From NCBI GenBank assembly GCA_964566575.1, contig CAZMKD010000237.1:1-61314 (forward strand): a stretch of DNA of 61,314 bases, read 5' to 3'. This stretch comes from an uncultured Verrucomicrobiota bacterium. GTDB taxonomy: Bacteria > Verrucomicrobiota > Verrucomicrobiia > Palsa-1439. The notes under the pieces were generated by a model. The model made no database searches, was not told the origin of the DNA, and worked only from the letters and a program-made list of their open reading frames with translations. Below, in pieces: positions 32,740 through 50,431 of this stretch (positions are counted from its first letter, which is position 1; every line of letters begins with the position of its first letter). Both the position numbers and the translations under genes were made by a program.

Positions 32740-32743
<4 letters not shown>

Positions 32744-34188
32744 CGTAGTCCAAATACTCCTGCCGCCATGGTGGCTGCCTCGACCAACGGCTGTTGATAA
32801 ATCCCCAGCCCAATCATTGCAAGCATACACACATACAAGCCGGCACGCATCGGCAGACTGACCGGGATCGGCGACGCGTCTTTGGCTTCCTCAATGTAGA
32901 TCGCGCGGCCGACGTTAAAATAGTAATACAGCGACACGACCACCGCCCCTGCGCCGATGCCGGCTAGCACATAATAATGCCAATTGGTCCGCGCGGCTTC
33001 GATCACGGCGGCGAAGAGTTGGAACTTCCCGAAGAATCCGCTCAGCGGAGGAATGCCGGCCAGCGACGCCATCGCGAGGAACAATGCCACGCCCAGAATC
33101 GGCGACCGTTTCCCCAGCCCGGCAAAGCTCGCAATCTCCTCGCTCTTCGTCGCCCCGGTCACGGCGATGATCGCAAGAAACGCGCACAAGTTCGTGAACG
33201 CATACTGCACGAGGTAAAACATTACGGCTTGCACGCCGAGTTGATTCACCGCCGCCACGCCCATCAGCATGTACCCGGCATGACCGATCGAGGAATACCC
33301 GAGCAGGCGCTTGATGTTGTGCTGCGAAATCGCGCCGAGATTGCCGTACAGCAATGTCGCCGCCGACAGCACAAGGATTACCGGCATCCACACGCCACGC
33401 ACCGGCAGCAATCCGGTCATCATCACGCGCAATAACAACGCAAACCCCGCCGCCTTGCTCCCGACCGCGAGGAAGGCGGTGACCGGCGTTGGCGCGCCCT
33501 GGTAAACGTCCGGCGCCCACAGCTGGAATGGCACGCTCGCGATCTTGAAGCCGAGCCCGGTCAATACCAACAGCATCCCCAAGACAAATGGTGGCGCCGG
33601 CGTCCCGGCCTGCGTCCGCAGGATTTCTGCAAGCGTGTCAAAGTTGGTCGTGCCGGTGGTTCCGAAGATGTAGGCAATGCCGTAGACGGTGAAGCCACTG
33701 GAGAGCGCGCCAAGAATCAGATACTTCGTGCCGGCTTCCAGCGATTGGCTCTGCCGGCGCAGGAAACTCGTCAGTACGTAGAAGGTGATCGTCACGAGTT
33801 CGAGCGCCACGAACAGCAAGATGAAGTCGTTCACCGACGCGATGATCAGCATCCCGGTCGCACAGAGCAACACCAGCGCGTAGAACTCAGCGACGCCGGT
33901 CTCAAACCGTTCCGCGAATTCTGCGCCCATCAACAACACAAACGCCGTCGCCAGTAAGAACAGCCGTTTGAAGAACAACGCAAACGCATCGAGCCGGTAC
34001 ATCCCGTGAAACAGCGGCTCCGGCAGCGTCGGCATGAGAAAGCTCGCCGCCAACGCCATCGCCACCAGCCCGGCCAGCACGTAGCCGAGCTTGCGTTTGT
34101 CGCCCGACGGTCGAAACGCATCCGTCAACAGCGTCCCGATGGCGAGCAACGCCAGCAAACATTCAAGCTGTGTGGCGTAGAGGCTCAC
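32740..34188 (-). CDS. nuoN: NADH-quinone oxidoreductase subunit N
   Basis: EAGTKY, FKIASVPFQLWAPDVYQGAPTP, KRLLGYSSI. Confidence 0.95.
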
Positions 34189-35774
34189 CGATGCACCTCT
34201 AGCGCAGCTTTGTCATTCCGAGCAGGGCGAGGAATCTCTGTCGGGCCGGGAGGGTTGAGATTCCTCACTTCGTTCGGAATGACAGGTGAATAAGTAACGA
34301 TTCGTTGCACACTCGGCTTGATGATGTCCGTCAGCAATCGCGGCCAGAAACCGACCGTCAGCAGCACCGCGATCAGAAACGCATACGGGAACTTCTGCTT
34401 CAGAGTCGTCGCGTCCTTGAGCATGTTCCACTTCTCATCGAACGGACCAAAGAAACTCGTCCGCACCGCCCGCAACAAATACGTCGCCGTGACCACGATG
34501 CCCCAGATTGCACAGATCGTCGCGATGCGGAACAGCGTCGAGCCTTGTTTCCACGCGCCGATGAAGACCATGACTTCGCTGACAAAATTCGCGAACCCCG
34601 GTAACCCGCTCGACGCCATCACGGCCATCACCATGCATACGCCGATGAACGGAATCTTCCGTGCCAGCCCGCTCAGGTCCGGCACGTTGCGGTTGTGCGT
34701 CTGATGATAGAAGAAGCCGATCAACGAGAACGTCAGCGCCGCCATCACGCCGTGCGCGAACATCAACAGCACCGCGCCGGTCACGCCGATCACATTCAAC
34801 GTCGCGATCCCCAGCAGCACGTACCCCATGTGACTGACCGAGCTATAGCCGATGACAAACTTCCAATCCTTCTGCGTCAGCGCCGCCCAACCGGCGTAGA
34901 GAATATTGAAGCACGCCAGAATCGCCAGCAAGTCCACCCACTGCCGCGCCCCCTCCGGCAACAGCGGCAAGGCCAACCGGATGATGCCGTACGCGCCAAG
35001 TTTCTTCAGCACGCCGGCATGCATCATCGAGGCGGCCGTCGGCGCAGACGCGTAGCCGAGCGGCGACCACGTGTGAAACGGAAACAGCGACGCGAGGAAA
35101 CCAAACCCAAACAACAACGCCGCAAACACCCACTTCTGATTCAGACCGGACCCGCGGAGATTCTCCTTCAACTGCACCATGTCCATCGTCCGTCCGCCCG
35201 CGTAGTACATCGTCAGCAACCCGACCAACGCCAGCACTGCGCCCGCCGTCAGGTACAGCGTCAACTTCATCGTCGCATATTCCTTCGTCCGCCCGTGCTT
35301 ACCGGCGGGCAGCGACCCGTACATGCCGATGAGCAAATACATCGGGATCACCGCCATCTCGTAAAAGAAGTAAAAGAAAAACATATCCATCGCGCAAAAC
35401 GTCCCGCTGATGCCGGTCGTCAACGCGAGAAACAAAATGTAGTACTCCTTCTCCCGCTCATGGATTTCGTGCGAAACCAGCGCCCCGCAGAACGACACGA
35501 TCCCGACGAGCAACAGCAACGTCATCGAAATCCCGTCCACGCCTAACTTCAGATTGATCCCGAGCGACTTCACCCACTCGTGCGTGAACACAAACTGATA
35601 CCCAGCATCCTGCCTGTCAAACCGTGAGAAGATATACAGCGTCAACACCAACGACACACCCGTTGCGAAAAGCGCCAACGCCCGAATCGCTCCCGGCTTC
35701 TTTGCCGGCAGCAGAAATGCCAAGAACGCCGACGCCAGCGGCAGCAGGACGGCTATGGTCAGTAAGTTTCCCAT
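34185..35774 (-). CDS. nuoM: NADH-quinone oxidoreductase subunit M
   Basis: GVDGIS, FYEMAVIPMY, PFHTWSP, HAGVLKK, GLPGFANFVSE. Confidence 0.95.
   Translation of the reverse strand: MGNLLTIAVLLPLASAFLAFLLPAKKPGAIRALALFATGVSLVLTLYIFSRFDRQDAGYQFVFTHEWVKSLGINLKLGVDGISMTLLLLVGIVSFCGALVSHEIHEREKEYYILFLALTTGISGTFCAMDMFFFYFFYEMAVIPMYLLIGMYGSLPAGKHGRTKEYATMKLTLYLTAGAVLALVGLLTMYYAGGRTMDMVQLKENLRGSGLNQKWVFAALLFGFGFLASLFPFHTWSPLGYASAPTAASMMHAGVLKKLGAYGIIRLALPLLPEGARQWVDLLAILACFNILYAGWAALTQKDWKFVIGYSSVSHMGYVLLGIATLNVIGVTGAVLLMFAHGVMAALTFSLIGFFYHQTHNRNVPDLSGLARKIPFIGVCMVMAVMASSGLPGFANFVSEVMVFIGAWKQGSTLFRIATICAIWGIVVTATYLLRAVRTSFFGPFDEKWNMLKDATTLKQKFPYAFLIAVLLTVGFWPRLLTDIIKPSVQRIVTYSPVIPNEVRNLNPPGPTEIPRPARNDKAALEVHR
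34211..34284. repeat. palindromic element copy 1, inside nuoM 3' end
   Basis: TGTCATTCCGAGC..CGAGGAATCTC / GAGATTCCTC..TTCGGAATGACA. Confidence 0.85.
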
Positions 35775-35827
35775 TTGTCTAGTTTGTCATTCTGAGTGCA
35801 GCGAAGAATCTCTGTTGGTCGTGTCTA

Positions 35828-36463
35828 TCATGCAGCTGTCTTTCTCCAAATCGCTAGACAGCTATAATCTGTGTGGGTTATTCGCCCGCGCAGTCCGATG
35901 TCCAACTGGCGAACCTGACCGTTGAAGTTAAGCACCGCAGACAACCGGATGCCAACGGCGACCACTTGGTCAGTCGCCGGGTCGTGCACAAATGCGACAT
36001 TGCTCTGTTCGTCATAGCCAAGTAGCAGCCACATGTGGCAACAAGCCGGACTTAGAGCGCCCGATTGCCAGTCGAGCATCCAAGTTGACACAACTACCGG
36101 GTGCTCTTGCACTGCGTGTTTCTTGATGAAGTCGAGCGCCTGCTCGGCCTTTGCGACGTCAAACGGGTTTTGGTCGCCCTGCTCAGTGAACACTTCGGTC
36201 GCAAAAACCGATGAAAACGTGGAGTGATTTTCGAGAGCTTGCACAATTCCGAAACCCACATCTTTCAGTTGCTCGTTCACATTGCTTTCGATTTGCTTGT
36301 TGTTGAGCGCATACCAAGCATCACGGATCTTCTCTTGTGAGAATTCCTCCGTGCCGAGCAAACGAGTGGCATTCGAGATAGACGCAGGGATACACCAGAA
36401 ATGCCCAGCTTGCCGGGTATTCTTACCAAGAATGCCTTGGAATTTTCTCAGCAGTTCACTCAT
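35828..36463 (-). CDS. C39-like papain-fold cysteine peptidase
   Basis: Q.....WC, HMWLLLGYD, HDP motifs; alternative start 36511. Confidence 0.7.
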   Translation of the reverse strand: MSELLRKFQGILGKNTRQAGHFWCIPASISNATRLLGTEEFSQEKIRDAWYALNNKQIESNVNEQLKDVGFGIVQALENHSTFSSVFATEVFTEQGDQNPFDVAKAEQALDFIKKHAVQEHPVVVSTWMLDWQSGALSPACCHMWLLLGYDEQSNVAFVHDPATDQVVAVGIRLSAVLNFNGQVRQLDIGLRGRITHTDYSCLAIWRKTAA

Positions 36464-36550
36464 GAATTCTCGTTCTTCAGGCGATTGATCGATAATCAAC
36501 GCGCTGCGCAACTGTAGTCGGCGATAGACGACCCAGCAGGATTGCCGCGT

Positions 36551-37663
36551 TCACCTAGAAGACCTCCTTACAAGTTTTCCGGTTATCGGATCGCCCCCGA
36601 AATTGATGCCTTTATACTCAGTAAGGTTCTCATTGAAGCGCAGATGAGCTCTAGTTGGATTTTCGAGTTGTGCTCGTCCAAGACTTCCCATCCTTATGAT
36701 CGCCTCTCGCTCTCCCACGGATTCGACAAACGCTTCCCATCCGTGACGTGGGCATTGTACGCGCAGGGTGTCGTCGATAGTGATCGTCTCGACAGTGTCT
36801 CCAGGTGACCCCCCTGTCCAAGTCCAAGTTGAGTTCCTAAGGATCGTCGCTAGACGGGGACCGGTGCTGCTCCCGGAGCGACCTGACTGTTCCGGTCTCG
36901 GCGTCTTAGTTTCTGTAACATCGTCGGCAGTTTCCGATTCTGAAAGCCCTTTCTGCAAACGCTCAATCCTTCCTACCAAGTCTGTGACTTCCACAGGAAC
37001 AACTAGGGGTGAGGTTCCAACCTTGATTGTGAGTTGTGTTCCATCCACTTTCATTAACCGGTACGTCTCGCCTCTCGACAAGCCCTGTACCCCGACCCTC
37101 TGCCCTTCGACGATTATCGGAAACGAAACGCTCTGAGTCATGGTCACAAACTTCGGCATTTGCTCCGCACTCAGTTCCATGCCGCGTGCGGGGTTGACAA
37201 CCTCGTACTTCTTCTGGATTTTCTGAATCTCTTTCTGGGCGTTGACGGCGTCGTCGAGCTTGTTATCGATGGTCAGCTTTCGCTTCATATCCTCAAGCTG
37301 AGTGAGGTAGCTTCTTGCGATTTCCTCTGCCGATTTCTTAGGCGCTGCCAGAAACTTGTTCTGAAGGTCTCGAAGCTTAACGGGTATATCAACTACGTGT
37401 TTCAGGTCTAAAGACTTCTCCGAGGCAAATCGCTCGATTTCCTTCTTCACGGCAAGAGTCTTGTCTAGGTCGCCCTGTAGACGGAACTCATCAGCAAGTT
37501 TGTCCAAGGCTGCCCCGTAGTCTTGAAGCAGTTGCGCCTTGGTTTTCAGCACTTCGGCGTCACACTTCTCAGCAGCCCCCTGGTAGGACTCCAATGCACT
37601 TGCCGGCCTCACACCCAGTAGTATTACGAATGCCATCACGAGACTCACCGCAATAGTTTTCAT
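36551..37663 (-). CDS. secreted coiled-coil hypothetical protein
   Basis: GGAGG RBS, signal peptide, long coiled coil, beta-rich C-terminus. Confidence 0.8.
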   Translation of the reverse strand: MKTIAVSLVMAFVILLGVRPASALESYQGAAEKCDAEVLKTKAQLLQDYGAALDKLADEFRLQGDLDKTLAVKKEIERFASEKSLDLKHVVDIPVKLRDLQNKFLAAPKKSAEEIARSYLTQLEDMKRKLTIDNKLDDAVNAQKEIQKIQKKYEVVNPARGMELSAEQMPKFVTMTQSVSFPIIVEGQRVGVQGLSRGETYRLMKVDGTQLTIKVGTSPLVVPVEVTDLVGRIERLQKGLSESETADDVTETKTPRPEQSGRSGSSTGPRLATILRNSTWTWTGGSPGDTVETITIDDTLRVQCPRHGWEAFVESVGEREAIIRMGSLGRAQLENPTRAHLRFNENLTEYKGINFGGDPITGKLVRRSSR

Positions 37664-37793
37664 ACAAGGTCCTCCGATATGTGTTGTACTCGATTGAATT
37701 CGTCGCTGAAAATATCGAGTCTAATCCCAGCAAGCCACCCGAACGACGGAGATTCTTCGCTGCGCTCAGAATGACAGATGGGGAGAGCGAGCT

Positions 37794-39680
37794 TCATTTC
37801 ACCACCACATAATAAATGATCACCGTCACGCCCAAGCCGAACAGAAAGGCGTAGCTCTGGATGTTACCGGTCTGCAATAGCCGCAGCGTCTTACCGGCCA
37901 CGCTCGTCGCGCCGGCAAGTCCGCCGATACCGAGACGTTGCAGCACCCAGCGGTCGAACAATTCGCACAGCGTCGCGATTGTGCCTTGCACATACTTGAT
38001 GATCAGTGCGTACAACTCGTCGAAATAGTATTTGTTCTCGACCCATGTCCACGCGCGACCCAACGCAGCCTTGACCGGCGCGTCGCTCGGATTCGCCATC
38101 AGGTAAATCTTTGCCGACAACAGGAAGCCCGCGGCCGGTATGAGCAGCAGTGCGAATCCCTTCCACGCATCATGGTGCTCCGCGTGCGCATTCGGCTTGA
38201 GGAAGTGCGGGACGTAATCGCCCCATCCACCGACAATCGACAGCACAGCGAGGAACACCAGCGGCAACGTCATCACGAGCGGCGATTCGTGCGGTTCATC
38301 TTCTTTGTGTGCTAGTGGCACAGGCGTCCCTGCCTGTGAATGTTCATGATGATGCACAGCGGCCTGTGCCACCCCATGTCCCCAGCGCGGCTTGCCGAAG
38401 AACACCACGAAGCATTCCCGGCCCATGTAGTATGCCGTCAGAAACGCCGTGAACGCGCCCATCACAAACAGCGCCTTGTTGTGCTCCAGCGCAAGCAACA
38501 GGATTTGGTCCTTCGAGTAAAACCCGCTCAACGGATACACGCCGGCCAGCGCCAGTGTGCCGATCATGAACGTCGCGAAGGTGATCGGCGTCTTCTTCCA
38601 CAGACCGCCCATCTTCCAGATATCCTGTTCGTGGTGCAGCGCATGAATCACGCTGCCGGCACCAAGGAACAACAGCGCCTTGAAGAACGCGTGCGTTGTC
38701 AGATGGAACATTGCCGGCGTGATGCCGGTCAACCCGACCGCCATCACCATGTAACCGAGTTGCGAAAGCGTCGAGTACGCGAGGATGCGTTTGATGTCGT
38801 TCTGCGCGATGGCAATCGTCGCCGCGCCCAACGCCGTGATTCCGCCAATCCACGCGATCAACGTCAACGCTGTCTCGCTCGGCAAAATCACGAACGACAC
38901 CCGGCACAGCATGTAAACGCCCGCCACCACCATTGTCGCCGCATGAATGAGCGCCGAGACCGGCGTCGGCCCTTCCATCGCGTCCGGCAGCCAGACATGC
39001 AACGGAAATTGCGCGCTCTTACCGACCGCGCCGCAAAAGATCAGCGCGGCAATGAGCGACAGCGTACCGGCAGGGATACCGGCAATCTTGCCCGGCAGCT
39101 CGGCAAAGTTGAACGTGCCGGTATTCGTCCACAGCAGGAGCACGCCGAGCATCATGCCGAAGTCACCGATGCGGTTGACGAGGAACGCTTTCTTGCCGGC
39201 TTCGGCGGCGCTGTGTCTCTCGAACCAGAAACCGATGAGCAAGTAGCTGCTGACGCCGACAAGTTCCCAGAAGATGAAGATCTGGATGAAGTTGTTCGAG
39301 AGCACGATGCCGAGCATCGAGAACGTGAACAACGACAGGCACGCGAAGAACCGCGAGAATCCCGGGTCGCCCTTCATGTAGCCGACGGAATAAATGTGAA
39401 TCGCCGAGCCAACGCCGGTTACCACGAGCAGCATGAGGATGCTAAGCCGGTCAATCGTCGCGCCAAACTCAATCTTCACGGCGTCGATCACGAGCCATTG
39501 CAGCGGGGCCGGTGACTGCCAGTTGCCGTGTTGCAGGAACAATTGCATCGTGAGCGCGAAGCCAGTCAGAATCGCCGCGCACGAAATGAGTGCGCTGAGC
39601 ATCTGCGCCTTGTGCGTCAGCAGCATGATCACCGCCGCGGCGCACAGTGGAGAAAAGAGGATAATCCAGACGGGGTTCAT
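37794..39680 (-). CDS. nuoL: NADH-quinone oxidoreductase subunit L
   Basis: GKSAQFPLHVWLPDAMEGPTPVSALIHAATMV, THAFFKALLFL. Confidence 0.97.
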   Translation of the reverse strand: MNPVWIILFSPLCAAAVIMLLTHKAQMLSALISCAAILTGFALTMQLFLQHGNWQSPAPLQWLVIDAVKIEFGATIDRLSILMLLVVTGVGSAIHIYSVGYMKGDPGFSRFFACLSLFTFSMLGIVLSNNFIQIFIFWELVGVSSYLLIGFWFERHSAAEAGKKAFLVNRIGDFGMMLGVLLLWTNTGTFNFAELPGKIAGIPAGTLSLIAALIFCGAVGKSAQFPLHVWLPDAMEGPTPVSALIHAATMVVAGVYMLCRVSFVILPSETALTLIAWIGGITALGAATIAIAQNDIKRILAYSTLSQLGYMVMAVGLTGITPAMFHLTTHAFFKALLFLGAGSVIHALHHEQDIWKMGGLWKKTPITFATFMIGTLALAGVYPLSGFYSKDQILLLALEHNKALFVMGAFTAFLTAYYMGRECFVVFFGKPRWGHGVAQAAVHHHEHSQAGTPVPLAHKEDEPHESPLVMTLPLVFLAVLSIVGGWGDYVPHFLKPNAHAEHHDAWKGFALLLIPAAGFLLSAKIYLMANPSDAPVKAALGRAWTWVENKYYFDELYALIIKYVQGTIATLCELFDRWVLQRLGIGGLAGATSVAGKTLRLLQTGNIQSYAFLFGLGVTVIIYYVVVK

Positions 39681-39693
39681 AGTCTCAAACGCT

Positions 39694-39778
39694 TGTCACC
39701 CTGAGCGCAGCGAAGGGTCTCTGTCGTTTCCGCGCCGCACCCCAACGACTGAGATTCTTCGCTCCGCTCAGAATGACA
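39694..39778. repeat. palindromic element copy 3
   Basis: TGTCACCCTGAGCGCAGCGAAGGGTCTC ... GAGATTCTTCGCTCCGCTCAGAATGACA. Confidence 0.88.
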
Positions 39779-39780
39779 GC

Positions 39781-39909
39781 CTAGGAGTTTGTCGGACTTG
39801 GAAGAGAGATTTTTCATAAGTTGTTCATTATCAAGAGTCGCATTTTTCGTGGGCAAGAATAGTCAGGTTGATAATCAACGGCTTACATCAAAGTCCGACA
39901 GGCTGCTAG
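39781..39909. mobile_element. 129-bp MITE-like element
   Basis: CTAG at both ends, 16/19 terminal inverted repeat (..TGTCGGACTT), 15/18 subterminal inverted repeat, AT-rich. Confidence 0.7.
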
Positions 39910-39954
39910 TGGAAGTTTCGAGTTCGTTCGTGTCTGATTCGTGTTCATTTGTGG

Positions 39955-40266
39955 CTACAGCCGCATCGAGTTCAGTTCACTCACGCTCACGGTTTGTTTG
40001 CGGCGGAACAGCGCCACGATGATCGCCAAGCCGACTGCCACTTCCGCCGCGGCGATGGCGATGATGAAAAACACGAACACCTGGCCATCCACGATTTTGT
40101 TGTATTTCGAGAACGCGATCAGCGCGAGGTTGGCGGCGTTGAGGTTCATCTCCAGCGCCATGAAAATCACCAGCGCGTTGCGCCGCACAATCACGCCGGC
40201 AATGCCCAGCGCGAACAACAGGCCGCTCACCCAGAGGTAATGGTTGAGTGTCAGCTCGGACGTCAT
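39955..40266 (-). CDS. nuoK: NADH-quinone oxidoreductase subunit K
   Basis: RRN...[25 protein letters not shown]. Confidence 0.95.
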
Positions 40267-40763
40267 TTCAAATCCTTCTTCGACAGCAGCACCACGCCGA
40301 CCATCGCGACGAGCAGTAACAGCGCGGTGACTTCAAACGGCAGCATGTAATGTTGAAACAGCGGCTTCACGACGTTCTCCAGGCCCGCGCTCAAGTCGGC
40401 GGTGCCGGTCTGCAGCGAAGTGACCGGCTTACTGAGGATGATACCGAGTTCCCACACAAACGCCCCGGCCACCACGAGTCCGCCGAGGATGCCGAGGTAC
40501 GCAAACCGCCGCCGCTCCGATGCCTTGATGTCGAGCAGCATAATGACGAACAGGAACAGCACCATCACCGCCCCGGCATAGACGAGCACCTGAATCGCCG
40601 CGATGAAGAACGCCTCCAGCAGCACGAACAGCCCGGCCATGAACAGAAACATCAGCACAAGACACATCGCGCTGGCGACCGGATTGCGGTTGGCAATCAC
40701 CAGCACGCCGCAGAACAGCATCGCGAGGCTGAAGAACCAAAATAGTGTGTCGTGAAAGTTCAT
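40263..40763 (-). CDS. nuoJ: NADH-quinone oxidoreductase subunit J
   Basis: [26 protein letters not shown]. Confidence 0.95.
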
Positions 40764-40767
40764 TCGC

Positions 40768-41340
40768 TTAGTGCTTTGACGTCGCCTCGACCGGCTTGCC
40801 ATCTCTTACCGGTGCCGCGGGCTCGCCCGGCGGCGGCGCGCCCATGTACTTCCATTTCCAAATCGAGTCCGGCTGGACGCCGCCGAGTTCCAGCAGCTTC
40901 TGTTTGTTGAACTTCAACTCATCGCGGCTGTAGCCGGCAATGGCGAAATCGTTTTTGAGGAAGATCGCCTCCTCTGGGCAGACTTCCTCGCAGTAGCCGC
41001 AGTAAATGCACCGCAGCATGTCGATGACGAATTCCTGCGGTTCTTTCTCGACGTTGGCGTCGAACGCGTTCTCCGGTCGGAATCCCGGCGTAATGCGAAT
41101 CGCTTTCGGCGGGCACACAAACTCACAGAGTTGGCACGACACGCATTTCACGCGGCCCTCCGGATCTTTCACCAACGTCGGCGCGCCCCGGTAAGCGCCG
41201 TACAGCGGCGGCTTTTCTTCGGGATACTGCCGGGTGAACTTCCGCTTCGGGATATGCTTCAACGTCAGCCACAGCCCGCCGATAATCTGCGGGATGTACG
41301 TTTTCTCCAACCACGTTAGTTTGGGTCGCTGGACTTGCAT
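40768..41340 (-). CDS. nuoI: NADH-quinone oxidoreductase subunit I
   Basis: CVSCQLCEFVCP and CIYCGYCEEVCP. Confidence 0.96.
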   Translation of the reverse strand: MQVQRPKLTWLEKTYIPQIIGGLWLTLKHIPKRKFTRQYPEEKPPLYGAYRGAPTLVKDPEGRVKCVSCQLCEFVCPPKAIRITPGFRPENAFDANVEKEPQEFVIDMLRCIYCGYCEEVCPEEAIFLKNDFAIAGYSRDELKFNKQKLLELGGVQPDSIWKWKYMGAPPPGEPAAPVRDGKPVEATSKH

Positions 41341-41341
41341 G

Positions 41342-42376
41342 TCACTTCACCACCAAGGCGAGCACCACGCCCACGAGCAAAATGTTTACGATGGTCAACG
41401 GGATGAAAATCTTCCAGCCCAACGCCATCAATTGGTCATACCGGAACCGCGGAATCGTCCAGCGCACCCAGATGTAGACAAACAACACGGCCAGCAATTT
41501 CGCCACAAACACGCCGATGTGCAGCAACCCGACGCCAAGCGTCTTGGCCGGCGCGTTCAGCGGCGCGAACGGCAGCGACCACCCGCCGAGAAACAGCGTC
41601 ACGATCAGCGACGACATCACGAACATCGCCGCGTACTCGCCCATCATGAACATGCCGAACTTCATCGAGCTGTACTCGGTGTTATAGCCGCCGACGAGTT
41701 CCTGTTCTGCCTCCGGCAGATCGAACGGCAGCCGGTTGGTCTCCGCAAACGCGCTGATGCCGAAAATGAAAAACGACAGCCATTGCCACGGATATACAAT
41801 CAGCCACGTGTGTTGCGCCTGATACTCGACCACGCTGCCAAAATTCAACGACCCCGCCTGCATGAATACCGGCACGACGCTCAGTCCAAGGCACACTTCA
41901 TACGAAATCATCTGTGCGCTCGACCGGATCCCGCCGAGGAACGGATACTTCGAATTGCTCGCGTACCCGGCCAGCACGATGCCGTAGACCGACAAGGACG
42001 TGAACGCGAACACGAACAGCACGCCGATATTCAAATCCGCGATCACGCACTTCACGTTGTGCCCGGCAATCGGCAGATAACTGCCCCACGGAATCACGCC
42101 GATGTTGATCAACGCCGGCATCATCACCAGCGTCGGCGCGAGGGTGTACAGCACCTTGTTGACGTGATGCGGCAACACGTCTTCCTTCAAAATCAGTTTC
42201 AGCCCATCCGCCAACGGTTGCAGCAACCCGAGCGGCCCGACGCGATTTGGCCCGATGCGATCCTGAATCCACGCCGACACCCAGCGTTCCGCCATCACCG
42301 TGTACGCCACAATGCCGAGCATCGCACCGATGACGCAGGCGATCTTGATGAGGTGAAAAAGAAGTTCGATGATCAT
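41342..42376 (-). CDS. nuoH: NADH-quinone oxidoreductase subunit H
   Basis: QDRIGPNRVGPLGLLQPLADGLKL, ETNRLPFDLPEAE. Confidence 0.97.
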   Translation of the reverse strand: MIIELLFHLIKIACVIGAMLGIVAYTVMAERWVSAWIQDRIGPNRVGPLGLLQPLADGLKLILKEDVLPHHVNKVLYTLAPTLVMMPALINIGVIPWGSYLPIAGHNVKCVIADLNIGVLFVFAFTSLSVYGIVLAGYASNSKYPFLGGIRSSAQMISYEVCLGLSVVPVFMQAGSLNFGSVVEYQAQHTWLIVYPWQWLSFFIFGISAFAETNRLPFDLPEAEQELVGGYNTEYSSMKFGMFMMGEYAAMFVMSSLIVTLFLGGWSLPFAPLNAPAKTLGVGLLHIGVFVAKLLAVLFVYIWVRWTIPRFRYDQLMALGWKIFIPLTIVNILLVGVVLALVVK

Positions 42377-44001
42377 ACCTTTGCCAGCATCGGTTGCGCT
42401 TCGGCCTTGGGTTCGGCCTGCTCAATCTTCAACTCCACACCCAAATCGCCAATCTTCGACAGGTTCAACCCCGCCAACGACGGTAACGTCCGCGCCATGT
42501 CTGCAAAAACGTCTTCAATGGCTGCGTAGCTTTCGCCGAGGAGAGCCGTGAGTGTCTGCCATTCCGGCCGCGCGATGCCGACCGGCGGAATTGCCGCGTT
42601 GAATCGCTGCAGCCGGTTCTTGCCATTAACGAACGTCCCGCGCTTCTCCGCAAACGTCGTCCCCGGCAACACGTAGTTCGCGTGTTCCGTCGCCTTCGTC
42701 GGCAACGTGTCGATCACGACGAGCAACTCAAGTTTCTTGAGCAATTCCTCCTCGACCGCATCTTCACCGAGCACAACGAGCGTCTTGATCTTACCGGCCT
42801 TGATGCCTTCGATGATCTCCGCAAGCTTGCCGGTCGCTACGCCGGTAAGTTTCGCGCCGGCAGTGTTCGGATTCCGGTCGGCCTGCAACAGCTTGCCGTC
42901 AGCCTCGCCGGTATGCGGGACGATGTCGACGAGTTCGCCGACGAGTTTCTTAAACAAGAAAAGTTCTTCGGTCGTCGCCCGTCCACTCGCGATACCGGCC
43001 ACGCCTTTCGCCGCCTTCAGTTTACCGGCAATTTGCCGGGTGGCCTCAACCCACGTGAGATTCACGCGCTCGCCGTAGACCGCGCTCTTCACGGTCGGCG
43101 ACGTGAGCCTGGCCGGGTCGTTGATGTACTTGAAATGCAACCGGCCGTAATCGCACATCCAGCATTGGTTGACGGCGTCGTTGTCGCGCGGCGTTTGCCG
43201 GTAGACGACGCCTTCGCGCGACCAGAGCACGGTGTTGCAGCCGGTCGAGCAATTCGGGCAGACCGACTTCGTCTCCTTCAAGAACCACACGCGTTGCTGG
43301 AAACGGAAATCATTCGAGGTCAGCGCGCCAACCGGGCAAATGTCCACAATATTAAGGTCGTAGTTCGTCTTCGGTTCTTGGCCGGGATAGCACGTGAGTG
43401 TCGAGTGACTGCCGCGGTCGATGAAGCCGAGGCAGTCCTGTCCGGCCACTTCCTTCATGAAGCGCACGCAGCGCGAGCAGAGGATGCAACGTTCGTCGTC
43501 GAGCATGATCTTCTTGCCGATAGGCGACATCTTCGGCTTGTGAACTTTCTCCTCGATGAATCGGCTCTCGCCCTTGCCGTAGTCCACGGAGAATTCTTGG
43601 AGCCGGCATTCGCCCGCCTGGTCGCAGATCGGGCAATCGAGCGGGTGGTTGATCAGCAAAAATTCCATCACGCCTTCGCGCGCCTTCACGACCTTTAGCG
43701 AACGCGTGTGCACGACCATGCCTTCCGCGACGCCGGCGTTGCAGCGGATCGCCAGCTTCGGCGCGAACATGATGACCGGTTTGCCATCCGGCCCGCTCTC
43801 CGGTTTCTTGTCCGGGCCGAGCTTCGGCATGCCGGTATCAACGAGACACATGCGGCAGTTGCCGGCGATGGTCAGCTTCGGGTGATAGCAATAGTGCGGC
43901 ACTTCAATGCCCGCGAGCTTCGCCGCCTCGATGAGGTTCATCCCCTTCGGCGCGACGACTTCCCTGTCATCAATCGTGAGTTTGACTGTGTTATCGGCCA
44001 T
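42373..44001 (-). CDS. nuoG: NADH-quinone oxidoreductase subunit G (short form, 542 aa)
   Basis: CYH..GNCRMC, HPLDCPICDQAGEC, CILCSRC, CPNCSTGC. Confidence 0.93.
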   Translation of the reverse strand: MADNTVKLTIDDREVVAPKGMNLIEAAKLAGIEVPHYCYHPKLTIAGNCRMCLVDTGMPKLGPDKKPESGPDGKPVIMFAPKLAIRCNAGVAEGMVVHTRSLKVVKAREGVMEFLLINHPLDCPICDQAGECRLQEFSVDYGKGESRFIEEKVHKPKMSPIGKKIMLDDERCILCSRCVRFMKEVAGQDCLGFIDRGSHSTLTCYPGQEPKTNYDLNIVDICPVGALTSNDFRFQQRVWFLKETKSVCPNCSTGCNTVLWSREGVVYRQTPRDNDAVNQCWMCDYGRLHFKYINDPARLTSPTVKSAVYGERVNLTWVEATRQIAGKLKAAKGVAGIASGRATTEELFLFKKLVGELVDIVPHTGEADGKLLQADRNPNTAGAKLTGVATGKLAEIIEGIKAGKIKTLVVLGEDAVEEELLKKLELLVVIDTLPTKATEHANYVLPGTTFAEKRGTFVNGKNRLQRFNAAIPPVGIARPEWQTLTALLGESYAAIEDVFADMARTLPSLAGLNLSKIGDLGVELKIEQAEPKAEAQPMLAKV

Positions 44002-44004
44002 GTT

Positions 44005-44841
44005 CTAACTCTTCAAAGCGGCCAGCAATTGAATCGGAGTGAAAGAAAAATCTTTCTTCATCTGCTTCCCCGTCCACTTTTTCACGAGTGGCGTTTTCGA
44101 AAGTGCATTCAACACAACGTGCAAGGCGAAGTTGGCGTCATCAGCGGCGCGTAGCTCACCTGCTGTCAGGATAAATGATGGCGTGTTCCCGGAGACTCCC
44201 TTCACCTCAACTTTTCGCGTCTGTTCGCCCTTCACGCAAAGGAGATCAAAACCAATTCTCTGTTTCTCGACAGACTCTACCTCCCACCCCAATTTCCGGA
44301 AGTCACCAGTAACCTTTCGAACTGCTGCTTCTTCTACCTTTCGATTCTTGGCTGGGTCACCAAATCCACCGCCGCCTTGCTTCTTCTTGTCGGCAACAGA
44401 TTTGGATTTCGCATGGCTGCCTTTCCAAGGCAGGAGTTTCTTCAACTCTGACTCTACATGCTTCAAGCTGACGACAGCCGCACGAGGGGCTACCCATTTC
44501 CGGACAAGTTGTGCGCTAATGGGGCGACCATTGAGTAGTTGTTCGCACTTATTGAGATCAAACTTGAGATCCACGAACCATTCTTCGCCGTCCTGCAACA
44601 CATCGTTGACCTTGGCATATCCGATGATCCCGAGGTCTTGGTCTCCCGTGTACACATAGACCTCGTCGCCCTTCCGGACGTTGTGGAAGTTCGTCTTGAT
44701 ATACCATGCGTCGTCTTCAGCTAAGCGGCGGTTCTCCACGAGAATCCTGTACGTATCAACGGATACCGGCCAGTGACGACCGTCCTTAAGTTCAAAGTAT
44801 CGGCCAGCCCGCTCTGAGATTGGATAGAGCCACGACGACAT
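44005..44841 (-). CDS. EVE/PUA-like domain fused to DUF3883 PD-(D/E)xK nuclease
   Basis: NVRKGDEVYVY..GIIGYAKV..FVDLKF..RPIS; C-terminal VEEAAV..GWEV..GFDL..VEVKG; GGAGG RBS. Confidence 0.75.
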   Translation of the reverse strand: MSSWLYPISERAGRYFELKDGRHWPVSVDTYRILVENRRLAEDDAWYIKTNFHNVRKGDEVYVYTGDQDLGIIGYAKVNDVLQDGEEWFVDLKFDLNKCEQLLNGRPISAQLVRKWVAPRAAVVSLKHVESELKKLLPWKGSHAKSKSVADKKKQGGGGFGDPAKNRKVEEAAVRKVTGDFRKLGWEVESVEKQRIGFDLLCVKGEQTRKVEVKGVSGNTPSFILTAGELRAADDANFALHVVLNALSKTPLVKKWTGKQMKKDFSFTPIQLLAALKS

Positions 44842-44867
44842 TACTTCAGTCCTCCGTTCTCGTGCGT

Positions 44868-45150
44868 TGTCACCCTGAGCGTAGCGAAAGGTCTCTGTCG
44901 TTTCTTCGGAAGCGACCGAACAATGTTGTAGCCACTCACGTAACTGCCGTTCGCGGTGTGAGTCCAGGACCACTGAACGTCTTCATTAGAAGCGAGCGCG
45001 ACGCCTTGCACGGCAAGCGCGCCCGACAACGATGATTGCGGGGCCGTCACCCAGCGAATACCGGCAGTCGTCTTCGATCGCCGCGAACGACTGAGATTTG
45101 CCGCTTTACGACGAGCGGCCTCTGCGAGTTTCACTTCGTTCAGAATGACA
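44868..45150. repeat. palindromic element copy 4 with about 200 bp interior and split right arm
   Basis: Left arm 44868-44895; right arm GAGATTT (45093) and TCACTTCGTTCAGAATGACA (45131-45150). Confidence 0.75.
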
Positions 45151-45160
45151 TCCAACGTGA

Positions 45161-45718
45161 TCATCGCTGTGCTTTCCTTCGGGCTATCTGGTACTTTGCG
45201 CCACGCTCCCGAACTTGGAAGCCGATCTGTTTGCGCGGCGGTTCTGGCTCGGTCATGAGTTGCCGGATCGCCTCGAAGACGACGCGGAACTGCTTGTCGT
45301 ATTTCTTCTCCAGTTCTTCGAGCTTGCGAGCAAGATCAGCGCGTGTCGCCAGCAGTTGCCGGAGCTTGACGAAGGCGCGCATGATCTCGATGTTCACTTT
45401 CACCGCGCGCGGGCTGTGCAGAACGCTGGAAAGCATCGCGACGCCTTGTTCCGTGAAAGCGTAGGGAGTGAACCGTCGCCCACCCCAACTTGAAATCACA
45501 ATTCGTGATTTCAAGTTTGTAAGCTCTTGGCGTGTAAGCTGAAACATGAAATCATCCGGGAAGCGCTCGGCGTTGCGTTTCACAGCTTGGTTCAAGACAC
45601 CCACTGGCACGCCATAGAGTTCTGCCAGGTCGGCGCTCAACATCACCTTCTGTCCGCGAATCAAGTAGATGCTGTTCTGAATCCGCTCAGCTGGAACAAT
45701 GGAGGAGTTAGTGGCCAT
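45161..45718 (-). CDS. ORF6N-domain protein
   Basis: [16 protein letters not shown]....[34 protein letters not shown]. Confidence 0.93.
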
Positions 45719-47474
45719 TCTTCCCCCCGTTCTTGCACGCTTCTTCAAACTCGCTGCGGTAATTTTTCAGGAACGCCTTGACCGGCCACGCCGCGGCTTC
45801 GCCAAGCGGGCAGATCGTTTTGCCGTCGATGTTGTCGGCAACTTCGAACAATAGATCGACGTCTTCGGGGCGACCGTGGCCTTCTTTGATGCGGTGGAGC
45901 ATTTTCTCCATCCAGAGCGTGCCCTCCCGGCAGGGCGTGCATTGGCCGCAACTTTCGTGGGCGTAAAATTGGGAGACGTTCAGCGTGGCGTCGACGATAC
46001 TCACGTCTTCGGTAAGCACGATGATGCCGCCGCTGCCGGCCATCGTGCCGGCTTTGCGCAGCGATTCGAAGTCGAGCGGGACATCCAGATTATTGGCGGG
46101 CAAAACTGGCATCGAACTGCCGCCGGGGATGACGCCTTTGATCTTTTTGCCGTCGGTCAAGCCGCCGCAGACATCTTCGATGAGTTGGCGCATCGTAAGT
46201 TTGCCCATCTCGAATTCGTAATACCCGGGGTGTTTGACCGGGCCGCTGACGCAGACGAGGCGCGTGCCGGTCGAGCCGGGGACGCCCATAGCCTTGAACC
46301 ATGCCGCGCCGTTCTTCACGATGTGCGGGATATTGGCGAGCGTCTCGACGTTGTTGACGACGGTCGGGCAGCCGAACAAGCCGACCACTGCCGGGAACGG
46401 CGGCTTGATGCGCGGGTAAGCACGTTTGCCTTCGAGCGATTCGATGAGGCCAGTCTCTTCACCGCAGATATATGCGCCAGCACCGCGATGGACGTAAATC
46501 TCAACACCCTTGCCGACGTAGCCTTGGGCGCGGGCTTCTTCAATGGCTTTCAGGAGAATCTGCGCGCCGACCGGCATCTCGCCCCGAATGTAGATGTAAG
46601 CGACCTTCGCCCCGACGGCGTAACAGGAGATGAGAATGCCTTCGAGGAGTTGGTGCGGGTCGTAATTGATGAGCTGCCGGTCCTTGAACGTTCCCGGCTC
46701 AGATTCGTCGGCGTTGCAGACGAGATAGACGGGCTTGCCGGTGCCCTTGGCGAGGAAACCCCATTTGAGGCCGCACGGGAAACCGGCGCCGCCACGACCG
46801 CGAATCTCGCTGCTCTTGACTTCATTGACGATTTCCTCGGGCTTCATCGTCAACGCCTTCGCCAACGCTTGATAGCCACCTTCCTTCTCGTAATCGGCGA
46901 GCGAACCGGTGTAGCCGGGCTTGGTGATGTTCGAGAGCACGATGCGTTTTTCGAGTGGATGGGCCGGCAACGGTTTCGCGATCGGTTCTTTCGCGAGTGT
47001 GCCGGTCCGGCGGATGTCAGCAATGATCTGATTGAGCCGCTCGGGCGTGACGCTGTCGAAGTGCTCGTCGTTGATCATCATGGCCGGCCCGGTGCCGCAC
47101 GAGGCGAGGCATTCGACTGTCGAAATCGTGAAGAGACCGTCGGGCGTGTTTTCATCGAGGCCGACGCCGAGTTTGTCCTTGAGCCGCTTCAGCAAACCAG
47201 CGCAACCGGCGAGGTCGCACGAGAGTGTCCGGCAAACTTTGACGTGAAACTTGCCGCGCGGCGTCTGGGTAAACATCGGGTAGAACGTGACGACTTCCCA
47301 GACATTGATCGGTTGCAGGCTGAGTTTCTGCGCCGTCCATTCGACCTGCTCGCTGCCGAGATACCCGAAGTGCTCTTGTAAGAGGTGGAGTAGCCACAGT
47401 ACCGATGCCCGTTTGGTCGGGTAGTGCGTGATGATCTCGTCGATGTGACGTTCTAATTGTTCTGGTACGGTCAT
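45708..47474 (-). CDS. nuoEF: fused NADH-quinone oxidoreductase subunits E and F
   Basis: NuoE CRTLSC..CLASC followed in frame by Nuo[32 protein letters not shown]. Confidence 0.93.
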
Positions 47475-47487
47475 TTTTCTTTAGTGC

Positions 47488-47564
47488 TGTCACCCTGAGC
47501 GCAGCGAAGGGTCTCAGTCGAACCGGCCGAACGACGGAGATTCTTCGCTTCGCTCAGAATGACA
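47488..47564. repeat. palindromic element copy 5
   Basis: TGTCACCCTGAGCGCAGCGAAGGGTCTC ... GAGATTCTTCGCTTCGCTCAGAATGACA. Confidence 0.88.
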
Positions 47565-47575
47565 AATAAATTTTT

Positions 47576-48814
47576 TCACCGGTCGCACTCTCCCATCACA
47601 AAGTCGAGACTGCCGAGGATGGCAACGGTGTCGCTCATCATGTGGCCTTTGCACAGCAAGGGTACGAGCTGGAGGTTCACAAAGCTTGGCGCGCGGATCT
47701 TGAGGCGATGCGGCGTGCCGCCGCCTTTGCTGACGATGTAGAAACCGAGTTCGCCTTTCGGGTTCTCGGCGGAGAAATAAATCTCGCCGGCGGGAGCGTT
47801 GATGCCCTGGGTGACGTTGATGAAGTGGTGGATCAATTCTTCCATCTTCGTCAGGACCGCCGTCTTGTCCGGCAACACGACCTTCGCTTCGGGTGCATGC
47901 CATGGACCCTTGGGCATGTAGTCGAGCGCTTGCTTGATGATGCGAATACTTTGGCGCATCTCTTCCATCCGGACAAGATACCTGTCCATGCAGTCGCCGA
48001 CGGTGCCGGTCGGGATCTTGAAATCGAAATTCTCGTAGCCGCCGTAGCGATGCGCCTTGCGAATGTCCCATTCGACGCCGCTGGCGCGGAGAATCGGGCC
48101 GGTCGCGCCGTAGTCAATGGCGTCGGCTTTCGAGAGGATGGCAATATCCTTGTTGCGCTCGATGAAAATTTTGTTGCGCGTGAGCAGCTTGTCAGTCTCA
48201 TCAATCGTCGCCGGCAAGCCCTCGATGAACTTCCGGCACATCGGGATGAAGTCGTCTGGCATGTCGTTGGCGAGGCCGCCGATGCGCGTATAGCTGGTCG
48301 TGAACCGCGCGCCGCAGATGAGTTCGCAGAGATCGTAGATCAATTCGCGTTGCCGGAAGGTGTAGAGGAAAACTGTCATCGCGCCGAGGTCCATGCTCAT
48401 TGCGCCGATGCCGAGCAGGTGCGAGCTGATGCGGGCAAGCTCGGCGCAGATGACGCGAATATACTTGCAGCGTTCCGGCACGTCGATGCCGCAGAGTTTT
48501 TCGACGGCGTAAGCGTAGGCGACGTTGTTGGCCAGCGGGGCGAGATAATCGAGCCGGTCGGTGTACGGGATGAACTGCGTGTACGTCATGTTCTCGGCGA
48601 TCTTCTCGTCGCCGCGATGGAGGTAGCCGATCTCCGGCCAGCAGTTGGTGATTTCCTCGCCGTCGAGTTCGAGCACGAGCCGGAACACGCCGTGCGTGCT
48701 CGGGTGCTGCGGCCCCATGTTGATGATCATCTTCTCGCCATGCAACTCTTCGTCGAACGCCTGTTGCGCCCGCGTAGCGGAATCAATCATCTCCATTTCA
48801 TATTTCGCCGCCAC
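47576..48814 (-). CDS. nuoD: NADH-quinone oxidoreductase subunit D
   Basis: NMGPQHPSTHG, GYLHRG.EK, RLDY, ENPKGELG. Confidence 0.97.
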   Translation of the reverse strand: MAAKYEMEMIDSATRAQQAFDEELHGEKMIINMGPQHPSTHGVFRLVLELDGEEITNCWPEIGYLHRGDEKIAENMTYTQFIPYTDRLDYLAPLANNVAYAYAVEKLCGIDVPERCKYIRVICAELARISSHLLGIGAMSMDLGAMTVFLYTFRQRELIYDLCELICGARFTTSYTRIGGLANDMPDDFIPMCRKFIEGLPATIDETDKLLTRNKIFIERNKDIAILSKADAIDYGATGPILRASGVEWDIRKAHRYGGYENFDFKIPTGTVGDCMDRYLVRMEEMRQSIRIIKQALDYMPKGPWHAPEAKVVLPDKTAVLTKMEELIHHFINVTQGINAPAGEIYFSAENPKGELGFYIVSKGGGTPHRLKIRAPSFVNLQLVPLLCKGHMMSDTVAILGSLDFVMGECDR

Positions 48815-48817
48815 GAG

Positions 48818-49423
48818 TTAGACCTGCTCCGTCTTCGATGGATTTTTTACGCGGTCGATGTTTTCGACAACGGTGTCCACCTGACGCGGCTCACGCACGA
48901 CCGAACTGCCTGACCCGATGGCCGGCACGAACGGCCCGCCCAACATCGGCGATGCGCGCACGGTATCAGCATCCACCGCCGTGTCCGGCAATTCCGCCGG
49001 GAGACCGGCCAGCGGGAAATCTTTCCGCAGCGGAAAAAAGGGATAACCGTCCCACATCAGAATGCGTTTCAGGTTTGGGTGATTGCGAAAGCGGATGCCG
49101 AACATGTCGAACGCTTCGCGTTCGTGCCAGTCGGCTGTCTTCCAAACGCTCACAACGGAATCCACGATCAAATCGTCTTCCGGCACGCTGGCCTTGAGGC
49201 GCAGATGGCAGCGGTCGGTCATCGAGTACAGGTGATAGACGACTTCAAAGCGCGGATCGTCGCCGTAGTTATCGACGCCGGACACGTCTGTCAGCATGTC
49301 GAAGCCGCGCTCCGACTTCAGATACCGGCAAGCTTCGAGAAGTTTCTCGCGCGTGATCCGCACGGTCGTTTCACCGCGGAACTCTGTCGTTGTGCCGCCG
49401 AAGCGAGTTTCGAGTTCCTTCAT
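48818..49423 (-). CDS. nuoC: NADH-quinone oxidoreductase subunit C
   Basis: [29 protein letters not shown]. Confidence 0.95.
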
Positions 49424-49998
49424 CGCCTCCCCGCGTAATCGCCGCGAACGACGACGGGGCCGGTCACCTTATTCCAAGTCGTCGCTGCGCTGCCGGACTT
49501 CATTCCTTGGAGCGCCTTCTCCTGTGCGATCTTGCGCTGCAACGCCATCAAGCCTTCCAGCAGCGCTTCCGGTCGGGGCGGACAACCGGAAACATAAATG
49601 TCGACCGGCAAGAAATGATCCACGCCTTGGACGACGGCGTAGCTGCGATACATGCCGCCGGTACTTGCACACGCACCCATGGCCATGCACCATTTGGGAT
49701 TCGGCATCTGATCCCAAACGCGTTTGACGACACCGGCCATCTTGTACACGCACGTGCCGGCCACGATCATCAAATCGCATTGCCGCGGCGAGAACCGCAT
49801 CACTTCTGAGCCGAACCGCGCGATGTCGAACCGGCTTGCGCCGGCGGCCATCAACTCGATGCCGCAACACGCCAACCCCATCGGCATTGGCCAGACGGAG
49901 TTCTTACGAACCCAGCCGACGGCCGCGTCGACGCGTGTCACGATAACGTCGCGGCCTTCGACTTTCTGATCGAAACCGACTTCGAGACGTTCACTCAT
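49420..49998 (-). CDS. nuoB: NADH-quinone oxidoreductase subunit B
   Basis: [27 protein letters not shown]. Confidence 0.96.
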
Positions 49999-50392
49999 GC
50001 CGGTCCTTCTTCGGCGCCCAATCCAGCGCGCCCTTTTTCCAGAGATAAATGTGGCCGGCCTCGAGGATGAGGAGAAACAGCGCCGCGCCAATCATGATAT
50101 TCCAGCCCATTTCCTTGAAAAGATCCCGGAACACCGCGCCCCAGCCGAGCATGAACACGACTTCGATGTCGAAAATGATGAACAGCATCGCTATCAGGTA
50201 AAACTTGATGCTGAACCGCGGCTGGCCAGCCTGCATCGCCGGCAAGCCGCATTCGTAGGCGCTGTCCTTGACTGGGTTGTGCGTGCGCTTCTTGCCGATG
50301 AGAGTCGGCAAAATGAGGTTGCCAATGGCAAAGCCGATGGCCACCAGCATCAAAATCGCAACCGGGACGTATTGATGTAATTGCTCGCTCAT
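49991..50392 (-). CDS. nuoA: NADH-quinone oxidoreductase subunit A
   Basis: [27 protein letters not shown]. Confidence 0.95.
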
Positions 50393-50431
50393 AAACAGTA
50401 ACAAGGCGAACTGTCACGCCAAACAGCCGGG

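Follow-up and report, generated by a model that had tools for sequence, protein, structure and literature searches.

Inverted hairpin repeats paired with a GIY-YIG nuclease gene cluster at nuo operon junctions in a family of uncultured Verrucomicrobiota

Hairpin elements in the nuo operon

The window analysed here covers positions 1 to 61,314 of contig CAZMKD010000237.1, which belongs to a 3.43-Mb assembly of 291 contigs (labelled G000) from an uncultured Verrucomicrobiota bacterium of the Palsa-1439 lineage. On its minus strand it carries a 14-subunit nuoA-N operon (32740..50417, with nuoE and nuoF fused; Pfam assignments and a tblastn gene map), and five elements built from inverted hairpin repeats of ~ 33 nt, here called arms, lie at the gene junctions of this operon. 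The arms form a repeat family with a conserved fold and an exclusive pairing with a GIY-YIG nuclease gene; the nuo operon is their hotspot across the bacterial family, where they turn over quickly and enclose foreign cargo.

Repeat finding and profile searching placed element 1, a doublet of two arms of the ATTCC/GGAAT stem type with an 8-nt spacer, at nuoM/nuoN (34211..34284; arms 34211-34243, plus strand, and 34252-34284, minus strand). Element 2, at nuoL/nuoM, is long (35785..37776; arms 35785-35817, plus, and 37744-37776, minus) and encloses 1.9 kb of cargo. The nuoK/nuoL doublet, element 3 (39694..39778), combines an arm A of CACCCT type (39694-39726, plus) with an arm B of CATTCT type (39746-39778, minus) and stops 13 nt short of the nuoL ATG. 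Element 4 occupies the nuoEF/nuoG insert (44868..45150; arm A 44868-44900, plus; arm B 45118-45150, minus); its right arm is degenerate, with a profile match limited to the first 21 nt (E = 0.075), and the two arms bracket the core of a 107-codon open reading frame (ORF; 44841-45164, minus). Element 5, the nuoD/nuoEF doublet (47488..47564; arm A 47488-47520, plus; arm B 47532-47564, minus), starts 11 nt past the nuoD stop and reaches to 13 nt before the nuoEF ATG. Within nuo, the doublets end 10–13 nt upstream of the following start codon.

In all five elements a plus-strand arm is followed by a minus-strand arm, so that the TGTCA heads point outward and the ends read TGTCA...TGACA. A sequence-only reading of the window had reported five palindromic copies with such ends at these places in nuo, and none, by eye, in the other ~ 48 kb. 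All five were located, and searching the whole assembly with an arm-derived profile turned up ten arms on this contig, every one within 34211-47564 and none in the rest of the window. The further remark that the copies share one orientation applies to three of them, which have the CACCCT-type arm on the left and the CATTCT-type arm on the right, and is meaningless for the other two. Element 1 is not intergenic: nuoM carries it in the 3′ tail of its frame, which reads through the doublet to add 25 residues ('VIPNEVRNLNPPGPTEIPRPARND' and eight more; window 34185-34330) and stops at a TGA overlapping the GTG start of nuoN.

No direct repeat suggestive of a target-site duplication was found at the five copies, nor in comparisons of occupied with empty nuoL/nuoM sites. 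A miniature inverted-repeat transposable element (MITE) of a DDE transposon was rejected as a candidate, since the inverted ends are present but a target-site duplication of fixed length was not found.

Fold of the arm

An arm reads TGTCA-stem-GA-GCGNAGC-GA-stem-TCTC, and the consensus of 62 arms from the assembly is TGTCA-YNCY-GA-GCGNAGC-GA-RGNR-TC(TC). Each arm makes a small hairpin of its own, with a TGTC head, a 5-bp stem (A-NNNY/RNNN-T), tandem G.A and a GCGNAGC core, which corresponds to the d(GCGNAGC) mini-hairpin, unusually stable in DNA. A C directly follows the palindrome, and then usually TC.

Stem variants stay complementary (ATTCT/AGAAT, ACCCT/AGGGT, ATTCC/GGAAT, ATCCT/AGGAT, ATGCT/AGCAT and others), and at the inner pair A-T can replace G-C (GAGCGAAGCGA to GAACGAAGTGA). 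The variable 4-bp stem was fully paired in 94% of 48 unique arms, compared with 47% (maximum 62%) when the 3′ halves were shuffled among copies. A long hairpin formed from arm to arm is rated much more stable by the nearest-neighbour model, at -20 to -30 kcal/mol (z about -6); folded as single-stranded DNA (ssDNA), the nuoK/nuoL doublet reached -30.2 kcal/mol (z = -6.6) and the nuoD/nuoEF doublet -26.3 kcal/mol (z = -5.8). Because the stems covary, yet the two arms of a doublet mostly differ in stem type (CACCY in one, CAT[TGC]CY in the other), the conserved fold is the small hairpin within each arm and not the long arm-to-arm stem. A scan of 33-49 kb of the window against Rfam 15 returned just two matches at chance level (E = 0.29 and 0.48), far under the gathering scores.

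A GIY-YIG nuclease gene bracketed by arms

Where 360–440 nt separate the heads, these 'long' elements encode a GIY-YIG protein of ~ 100 aa, in the host and also at the nuoL/nuoM junctions of G006 and G009. The assembly holds an intact unit of this kind (C103:2164-2528; gene C103:2212-2499; Pfam GIY-YIG, E = 2.4e-13) and a decayed copy (C139:13658-14018). In a survey of the host genome and 30 relatives, genes whose products were at least 43% identical to the C103 protein had heads-out arms on both sides at 10 out of 10 loci, in eight genomes of the family and order, and none of six more distant GIY-YIG paralogs was so bracketed. The search for a linked nuclease gene that the sequence-only reading had suggested was thereby answered. 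We refer to the gene as ssn, after the Ssn proteins, single-domain GIY-YIG nucleases of ~ 94 aa (Chenal 2025, Nat Commun 16:2388, PMC11893778).

Residues Y7, Y17, R27, H31, E64 and N83 are invariant among the proteins of the host family. In other phyla, arms flanked an ssn homolog, 50–55% identical, at 3 of 120 loci (Syntrophales, Chloroflexota and another contig). No consistent polarity with respect to the ssn gene was seen for the two arm types. In five relatives (G006, G009, G014, G049 and G051) the ssn gene is located at the nuoL/nuoM stop-start overlap.

One contig of the cross-phylum scan carries five tandem doublets, or ten arms, with a period of ~ 140 nt around an ssn homolog (L210 4574-5592), an array much denser than any in the host family.

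Distribution across the genome and the family

Genome-wide, the arms number about 62 and group into 24 pairs and 12 solo arms, or about 36 elements, spread over about 30 contigs; the proposed confinement to nuo, although true of the window, fails at this scale. All 24 pairs are heads-out, and most lie 7–19 nt from gene ends. They share the REPIN layout, in which a short imperfect palindrome is doubled in inverted orientation outside genes, and the likeness once noted to CGTC/TGTC-tagged families of repetitive extragenic palindromic (REP) sequences holds for these TGTC-headed hairpin doublets. Read backwards, the strict arm pattern gave no match in 45 family genomes, so the occurrences of arms are not due to chance.

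The copies are not uniformly spread. Five of the 36 elements fall in 13.4 kb, or 0.39% of the genome (binomial P = 3e-7), which bears out the concentration in nuo first noticed by eye, and this concentration recurs across the family. A second cluster in the assembly comprises three elements on C139 around nadB, panC, panB, folK and dapB, surrounding the decayed ssn copy.

Two other places in the assembly may be further arm-cargo-arm units. At C157:8232-11835, outward-facing arms 3.6 kb apart surround an ORF of ~ 1150 aa, and at C40:1496-4022 such arms flank a 612-aa ORF adjoining an IS5-like transposase ORF.

Arms were then mapped on the orthologous nuo operons of 33 genomes, with genes placed by tblastn. 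They were present in 15 operons and absent from 18, and nine junctions were in use across the family (B/C, D/EF, EF/G, G/H, I/J, J/K, K/L, L/M and M/N). The nuo loci of 20 relatives (354 kb) held 46 arms, 34 of them strict, against 2.4 expected from genome-wide density (P = 4e-27; 2e-14 with doublets counted once), counts to which shared ancestry contributes. In the same 20 genomes no arm was found in 328 kb of ribosomal-protein/SecY clusters or in 334 kb of dcw/MraY (cell-division) clusters. A paralogous 11-subunit complex-I operon had one solo arm across seven genomes, and membrane-complex operons in general were rejected as targets on this count.

Exact copies of the 28-nt module were found across more than ten phyla, in contexts unrelated to one another, and in many phyla the module lies between convergent or divergent genes. 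A nuo gene stood next to the hairpin in just 1 of 120 hairpin-bearing loci from other phyla, and a general cross-phylum preference for nuo was rejected on this count; the operon is a hotspot specific to the host family.

Relatedness of the nuo arms

For seven of the nine well-scored arms in nuo, the closest relative genome-wide is again a nuo arm, compared with 15% expected (P = 5e-5). The arms at nuoL/nuoM, nuoK/nuoL, nuoEF/nuoG and nuoD/nuoEF are each other's closest relatives. Those of the nuoM/nuoN doublet are of a different subtype; because their nearest relatives sit on other contigs (C81, C280 and C57), this doublet is a separate arrival by independent insertion.

Occupancy and turnover of the nuoL/nuoM junction

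Empty nuoL/nuoM alleles have an overlapping stop and start (…GTGAGG-TGATG-G… or TAATG; the site sequence includes GTGAGGTGATGG), and in occupied alleles everything is inserted between TGA and ATG. The right border, TGACA-AACTAGACAA-ATG(nuoM), is common to the host and G014 and near-identical in G009 and G047, which together represent four genera. In G047 (L063) a collapsed single hairpin, TGTCATTCTGAGCGAAGCGAAGAATGACA, stands between intact left and right linkers, and looks like what a deletion between two arms would leave of an earlier doublet.

Mapped onto a tree of NuoG-L proteins, the presence of hairpins at this junction requires at least nine changes over 28 genomes. Sister genomes differ: G051 has ssn where G018 is empty, and G049 has ssn where G053 is empty. 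Identity close to the junction dips near nuoL/nuoM in two sister pairs differing in occupancy (G051/G018 and G041/G007), although the signal is noisy.

The cargo of element 2 in the host consists of two genes on the minus strand. The first (35828..36511) encodes a Peptidase_C39_2-like protein of 227 aa (Pfam PF13529, E = 3.5e-7), has a GC content of 51.6%, compared with 58–60% in the nuo genes, and scores low under the host codon model. The second (36551..37663; GC 51.9%) encodes 370 aa with no Pfam family, and searches of the other 44 family genomes yielded partial domain matches only and no ortholog. Given a GC content of 52% versus 58–60%, the lack of a family ortholog of the 370-aa gene and the shared right border, the nuoL/nuoM cargo was acquired between retained borders.

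Accessory genes at nuo junctions

Between nuoEF and nuoG the host carries two accessory genes on the minus strand (44005..45748), one of NOV_C/DUF3883 type (44005-44973, start uncertain; Pfam PF13020, E = 1e-9) and one with an ORF6N domain (45161-45748; Pfam PF10543, E = 5e-35). The ORF6N gene is kept at nuoEF/nuoG in G006, G001 and G039 and stands at nuoK/nuoL in G034 and G035. Homologs of the 107-codon ORF occur at nuoEF/nuoG in G004, G013 and G042, with arms alongside in the latter two.

Family-wide, nuo junctions also hold DUF1016/YhcG-like, GxxExxY, ORF6N and NOV_C genes as well as small membrane ORFs, many of them without arms. Armless accessory genes were seen at the nuo junctions of relatives at L004 7680-9343, L014 8802-9873, L007 6549-6992, L003 2604-3047 and L005 12019-13097. 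At nuoL/nuoM, G005 and G001 have a protein of 354–369 aa, putatively DUF1016/YhcG-like by the look of its sequence; at nuoD/nuoEF, G009 and G006 have a 136-aa GxxExxY-like protein; and at nuoEF/nuoG, G004 has a membrane ORF together with its 107-codon-ORF homolog, in each case with no arms.

Comparison with known systems

In Neisseria, the repeat recognised by SsnA is called NTS (CGTCATTCCCGCGMAVGCGGGAATCYRG; the general name is SRM); NTS flank ssnA on both sides and are also dispersed, clustering around genes (PMC11893778). An Ssn protein binds its hairpin repeat as ssDNA only, and on one strand only, and cuts a few nucleotides upstream; the C after the NTS palindrome is critical for binding, and the catalytic mutants of SsnA are Y6A, Y17A and E64A (PMC11893778). 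SsnA of Neisseria meningitidis, the one Ssn member tested in print, bound ssDNA and not RNA, and SsnA lowers transformation by NTS-carrying DNA (PMC11893778). The authors of that study point out the likeness to insertion sequence (IS) elements and to REP sequences with their REP-associated tyrosine transposases (RAYT; PMC11893778). A literature search linking GIY-YIG with REP, REPIN or MITE gave nothing relevant besides the same paper (PMC11893778).

The arms resemble this system in several respects. They are oriented hairpin repeats in the 20–50-nt range with an upstream (C/T)GTC tag and, as in NTS, carry a (C/T)GTC-ATTCY...RGAAT-C frame that includes the C after the palindrome. A single-domain GIY-YIG gene for ~ 95–100 aa is bracketed by inverted copies, others are dispersed mostly outside genes, and here as in Neisseria the repeats cluster around particular genes. 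Y7, Y17 and E64 of the host family line up with Y6, Y17 and E64 of SsnA, with the same Tyr/Tyr/Glu spacing. On this likeness, the element belongs to a kind already known (Ssn/SRM, 2025), and the host repeats appear to be a somewhat divergent member of it: the arm stem is shorter (5 bp) and followed by tandem G.A and the GCGNAGC mini-hairpin, copies number tens and not hundreds, and arms are paired into doublets with two distinct stem types. The new part is the distribution, in that a core respiratory operon is the family's hotspot for hairpins, for the nuclease gene, which itself sits at a junction of that operon, and for stray genes.

REP, BIME and REPIN elements of Enterobacteria and Pseudomonas are short RAYT-linked hairpins with a fixed 5′ tetranucleotide. 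They share with the arms the inverted pairing, the intergenic position inside or after operons and a low-copy enzyme gene flanked by the same repeats, but their partner is a Y1 HUH transposase and not a GIY-YIG nuclease. In the dRS3/NIME arrays and minimal mobile elements of Neisseria, inverted hairpin repeats likewise frame short variable segments at sites between conserved genes, with different cargo per strain. Those arrays lie at surface-protein and island loci of a naturally transformable pathogen, whereas the sites here are places where stop and start codons overlap in a core operon, and the hosts are uncultured soil bacteria. The Seg and Mob homing endonuclease genes of T-even phages are small GIY-YIG or HNH genes placed precisely between conserved genes and patchy among close relatives; these free-standing enzymes cut the empty allele as double-stranded DNA and lack the dispersed hairpin repeats that mark the present system.

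Interpretation and alternative explanations

The observations are, in our judgement, fairly probably explained by Ssn-type hairpin doublets with a resident source at nuoL/nuoM, local copying to other junctions and turnover of the cassettes between the arms. By analogy, the nuclease would act on arms as SsnA does on NTS, and in ssDNA a nick is predicted a few nucleotides 5′ of each outward-facing hairpin; since the arms are heads-out, one nick would fall at each outer border, one per strand. Such nicks could initiate copying or excision of the DNA enclosed by the arms, or its exchange through repair. A resident copy at nuoL/nuoM may have seeded neighbouring junctions by short-range copying, hairpin pairs would allow the intervening DNA to be exchanged, and any effect on nuo mRNA would be a by-product.

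Several points weigh against this account. The nuoM/nuoN doublet is of a different subtype, and local copying therefore cannot explain all five elements. The intact ssn gene of the host lies outside nuo, on a contig (C103) without extra arms, and G004 and G005 have nuo arms and no detectable ssn gene, although these metagenome-assembled genomes (MAGs) are incomplete. Shared ancestry inflates the family-wide counts, and the independent events are better put at no fewer than nine junctions than at 46 arms. The solved structures closest to the C103 protein are the UPF0213 proteins 1zg2 and 1ywl. The published SRM search sequence, HGTCWYN(0-2)YYVSBRHN(0-5)WNVSBRGN(0-2)RNCYNB, matched just 1 of the 62 arms (genome-wide it gave 30 matches, compared with 19 in a reversed control); it expects a longer, GC-rich stem, and having been built on 29 genomes as an aid to searching, it does not define the family. 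Finally, no excision or transposition by any Ssn is in print; Ssn/SRM was described only in 2025, and its demonstrated biology is the reduced transformation of Neisseria.

A stronger version, in which the hairpin-ssn-hairpin unit is a true mobile element spread by its own GIY-YIG nuclease and homing to nuo stop-start overlaps, with hairpin pairs as portable, cargo-exchanging borders, is conceivable and in our view doubtful. Were it true, the C39-like peptidase and 370-aa genes and the 107-codon ORF would be its cargo, while elsewhere nuclease-like genes hold nuo junctions, mostly without arms. A core respiratory operon would then shelter selfish genes and serve as a platform for their exchange, and GIY-YIG would join the HUH, DDE and serine/tyrosine enzymes as a mobilising class in prokaryotes.

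Local copying from a resident source has to be weighed against the idea that nuo is simply tolerant. If the operon is partly redundant with a second complex-I-like operon, insertions at its junctions would not be purged; a second NuoH paralog is present in every genome examined, and many unrelated accessory genes sit at the family's nuo junctions without arms. Redundancy is symmetrical, however, and the paralogous operon has almost no arms; tolerance leaves unexplained both that nuo arms are mutual nearest relatives and that the nuclease gene occupies one exact site in five genomes. We regard it as unlikely to be the explanation, while it is compatible with local copying from nuoL/nuoM as a contributing factor.

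The sequence-only reading had proposed selection for a role in mRNA processing or stability that tunes subunit stoichiometry. Hairpins kept for an mRNA role would be sites of processing, would block 3′ exonucleases or would uncouple translation, and so set the ratios of complex I subunits. The REP/BIME elements inside E. coli operons are a precedent, and such a role would suit the strong doublet folds, the placement of all five elements in one co-directional operon and of 21 of 31 elements genome-wide between co-directional genes, and the doublet ends 10–13 nt before the next start, where they replace stop-start overlaps that otherwise couple translation. It is at odds with the patchiness of occupancy: more than half of the surveyed nuo operons (18/33) have no arms, the occupied junction varies among nine, sister genomes differ, and the nuoL/nuoM state changed at least nine times over 28 genomes. 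Covariation, moreover, keeps the small arm hairpin and not the long arm-to-arm stem, and the same module flanks a nuclease gene and lies between convergent or divergent genes in many phyla. Since SsnA, in addition, does not bind RNA (PMC11893778), we find selection for tuning subunit stoichiometry quite unlikely.

Targeting of highly transcribed DNA, the other proposal made from the window alone, would have insertion directed to ssDNA exposed by heavy transcription of a long and highly expressed operon. Ssn-type nucleases act on ssDNA only (PMC11893778), nuo is long and probably well expressed, and the elements fit snugly at gene borders. The controls contradict this proposal: the ribosomal-protein/SecY clusters, probably the most transcribed, contained no arm in 328 kb from 20 relatives and the dcw clusters none in 334 kb, the paralogous complex-I operon had one arm in seven genomes, and nuo was the neighbour at 1 of 120 loci in other phyla. 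We therefore hold transcription targeting to be very unlikely as the cause; like mRNA tuning, it is a possible side effect, and neither idea agrees well with the controls or with how patchily the arms are distributed.

That the arms are ordinary REP/REPIN elements moved by a RAYT (Y1 HUH) transposase is a highly improbable explanation, even though doublet architecture, extragenic position and a hairpin with a fixed 5′ tetranucleotide are REPIN-like and the assembly encodes two RAYT-like Y1_Tnp (PF01797) proteins (C266:45085-45555 and C194:6383-7234), because the arm head is TGTC and not GTAG and arms bracketed neither of these genes nor any of 30 Y1 loci in 10 relatives, all flanked by other repeats. 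The C266 gene is flanked by GTAG-headed palindromes containing CTGCGAAGCGCAG, and the C194 gene by another repeat, which translates as '...GDKSPHSK' / 'AAKRRQVAALQ'. Since both Y1 genes are flanked by other repeat families, the genome hosts at least three hairpin-repeat systems.

In the relative G007, contig C35 (L019 896-1932) has a gene for a Y1 transposase of 318 aa between the two copies of a 32-nt inverted repeat (97% complementary); this repeat likewise starts with TGTCA (TGTCATTGGGGTCAACTCAATACACTGGACAG) and is otherwise unrelated to the arms.

The family amounts to a compact natural experiment, with nine usable junctions in one operon and a precisely defined empty site (TGATG), and closely related genomes show empty, hairpin-only, nuclease-bearing, cargo-bearing and collapsed states. 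With this range of states and a defined empty site, mobilisation of hairpins by Ssn and movement of cargo by hairpin pairs are directly testable. For annotators, the extra ORFs and C-terminal extensions (NuoM tails) inside nuo of these MAGs are insertions and not new complex I subunits.

Other features of the window

Adjoining the nuoK/nuoL doublet is a 129-bp element (window 39781-39909) whose terminal inverted repeats are 22 nt long (CTAGGAGTTTGTCGGACTTGGA / TCAAAGTCCGACAGGCTGCTAG). Outside it, the remainder of the 274-nt nuoK/nuoL spacer has a GC content of only 43%. The nuoE-nuoF fusion (window 45708-47474) encodes 588 aa with 2Fe-2S_thioredx, Complex1_51K, SLBB and NADH_4Fe-4S domains, and the fusion is conserved across the family.

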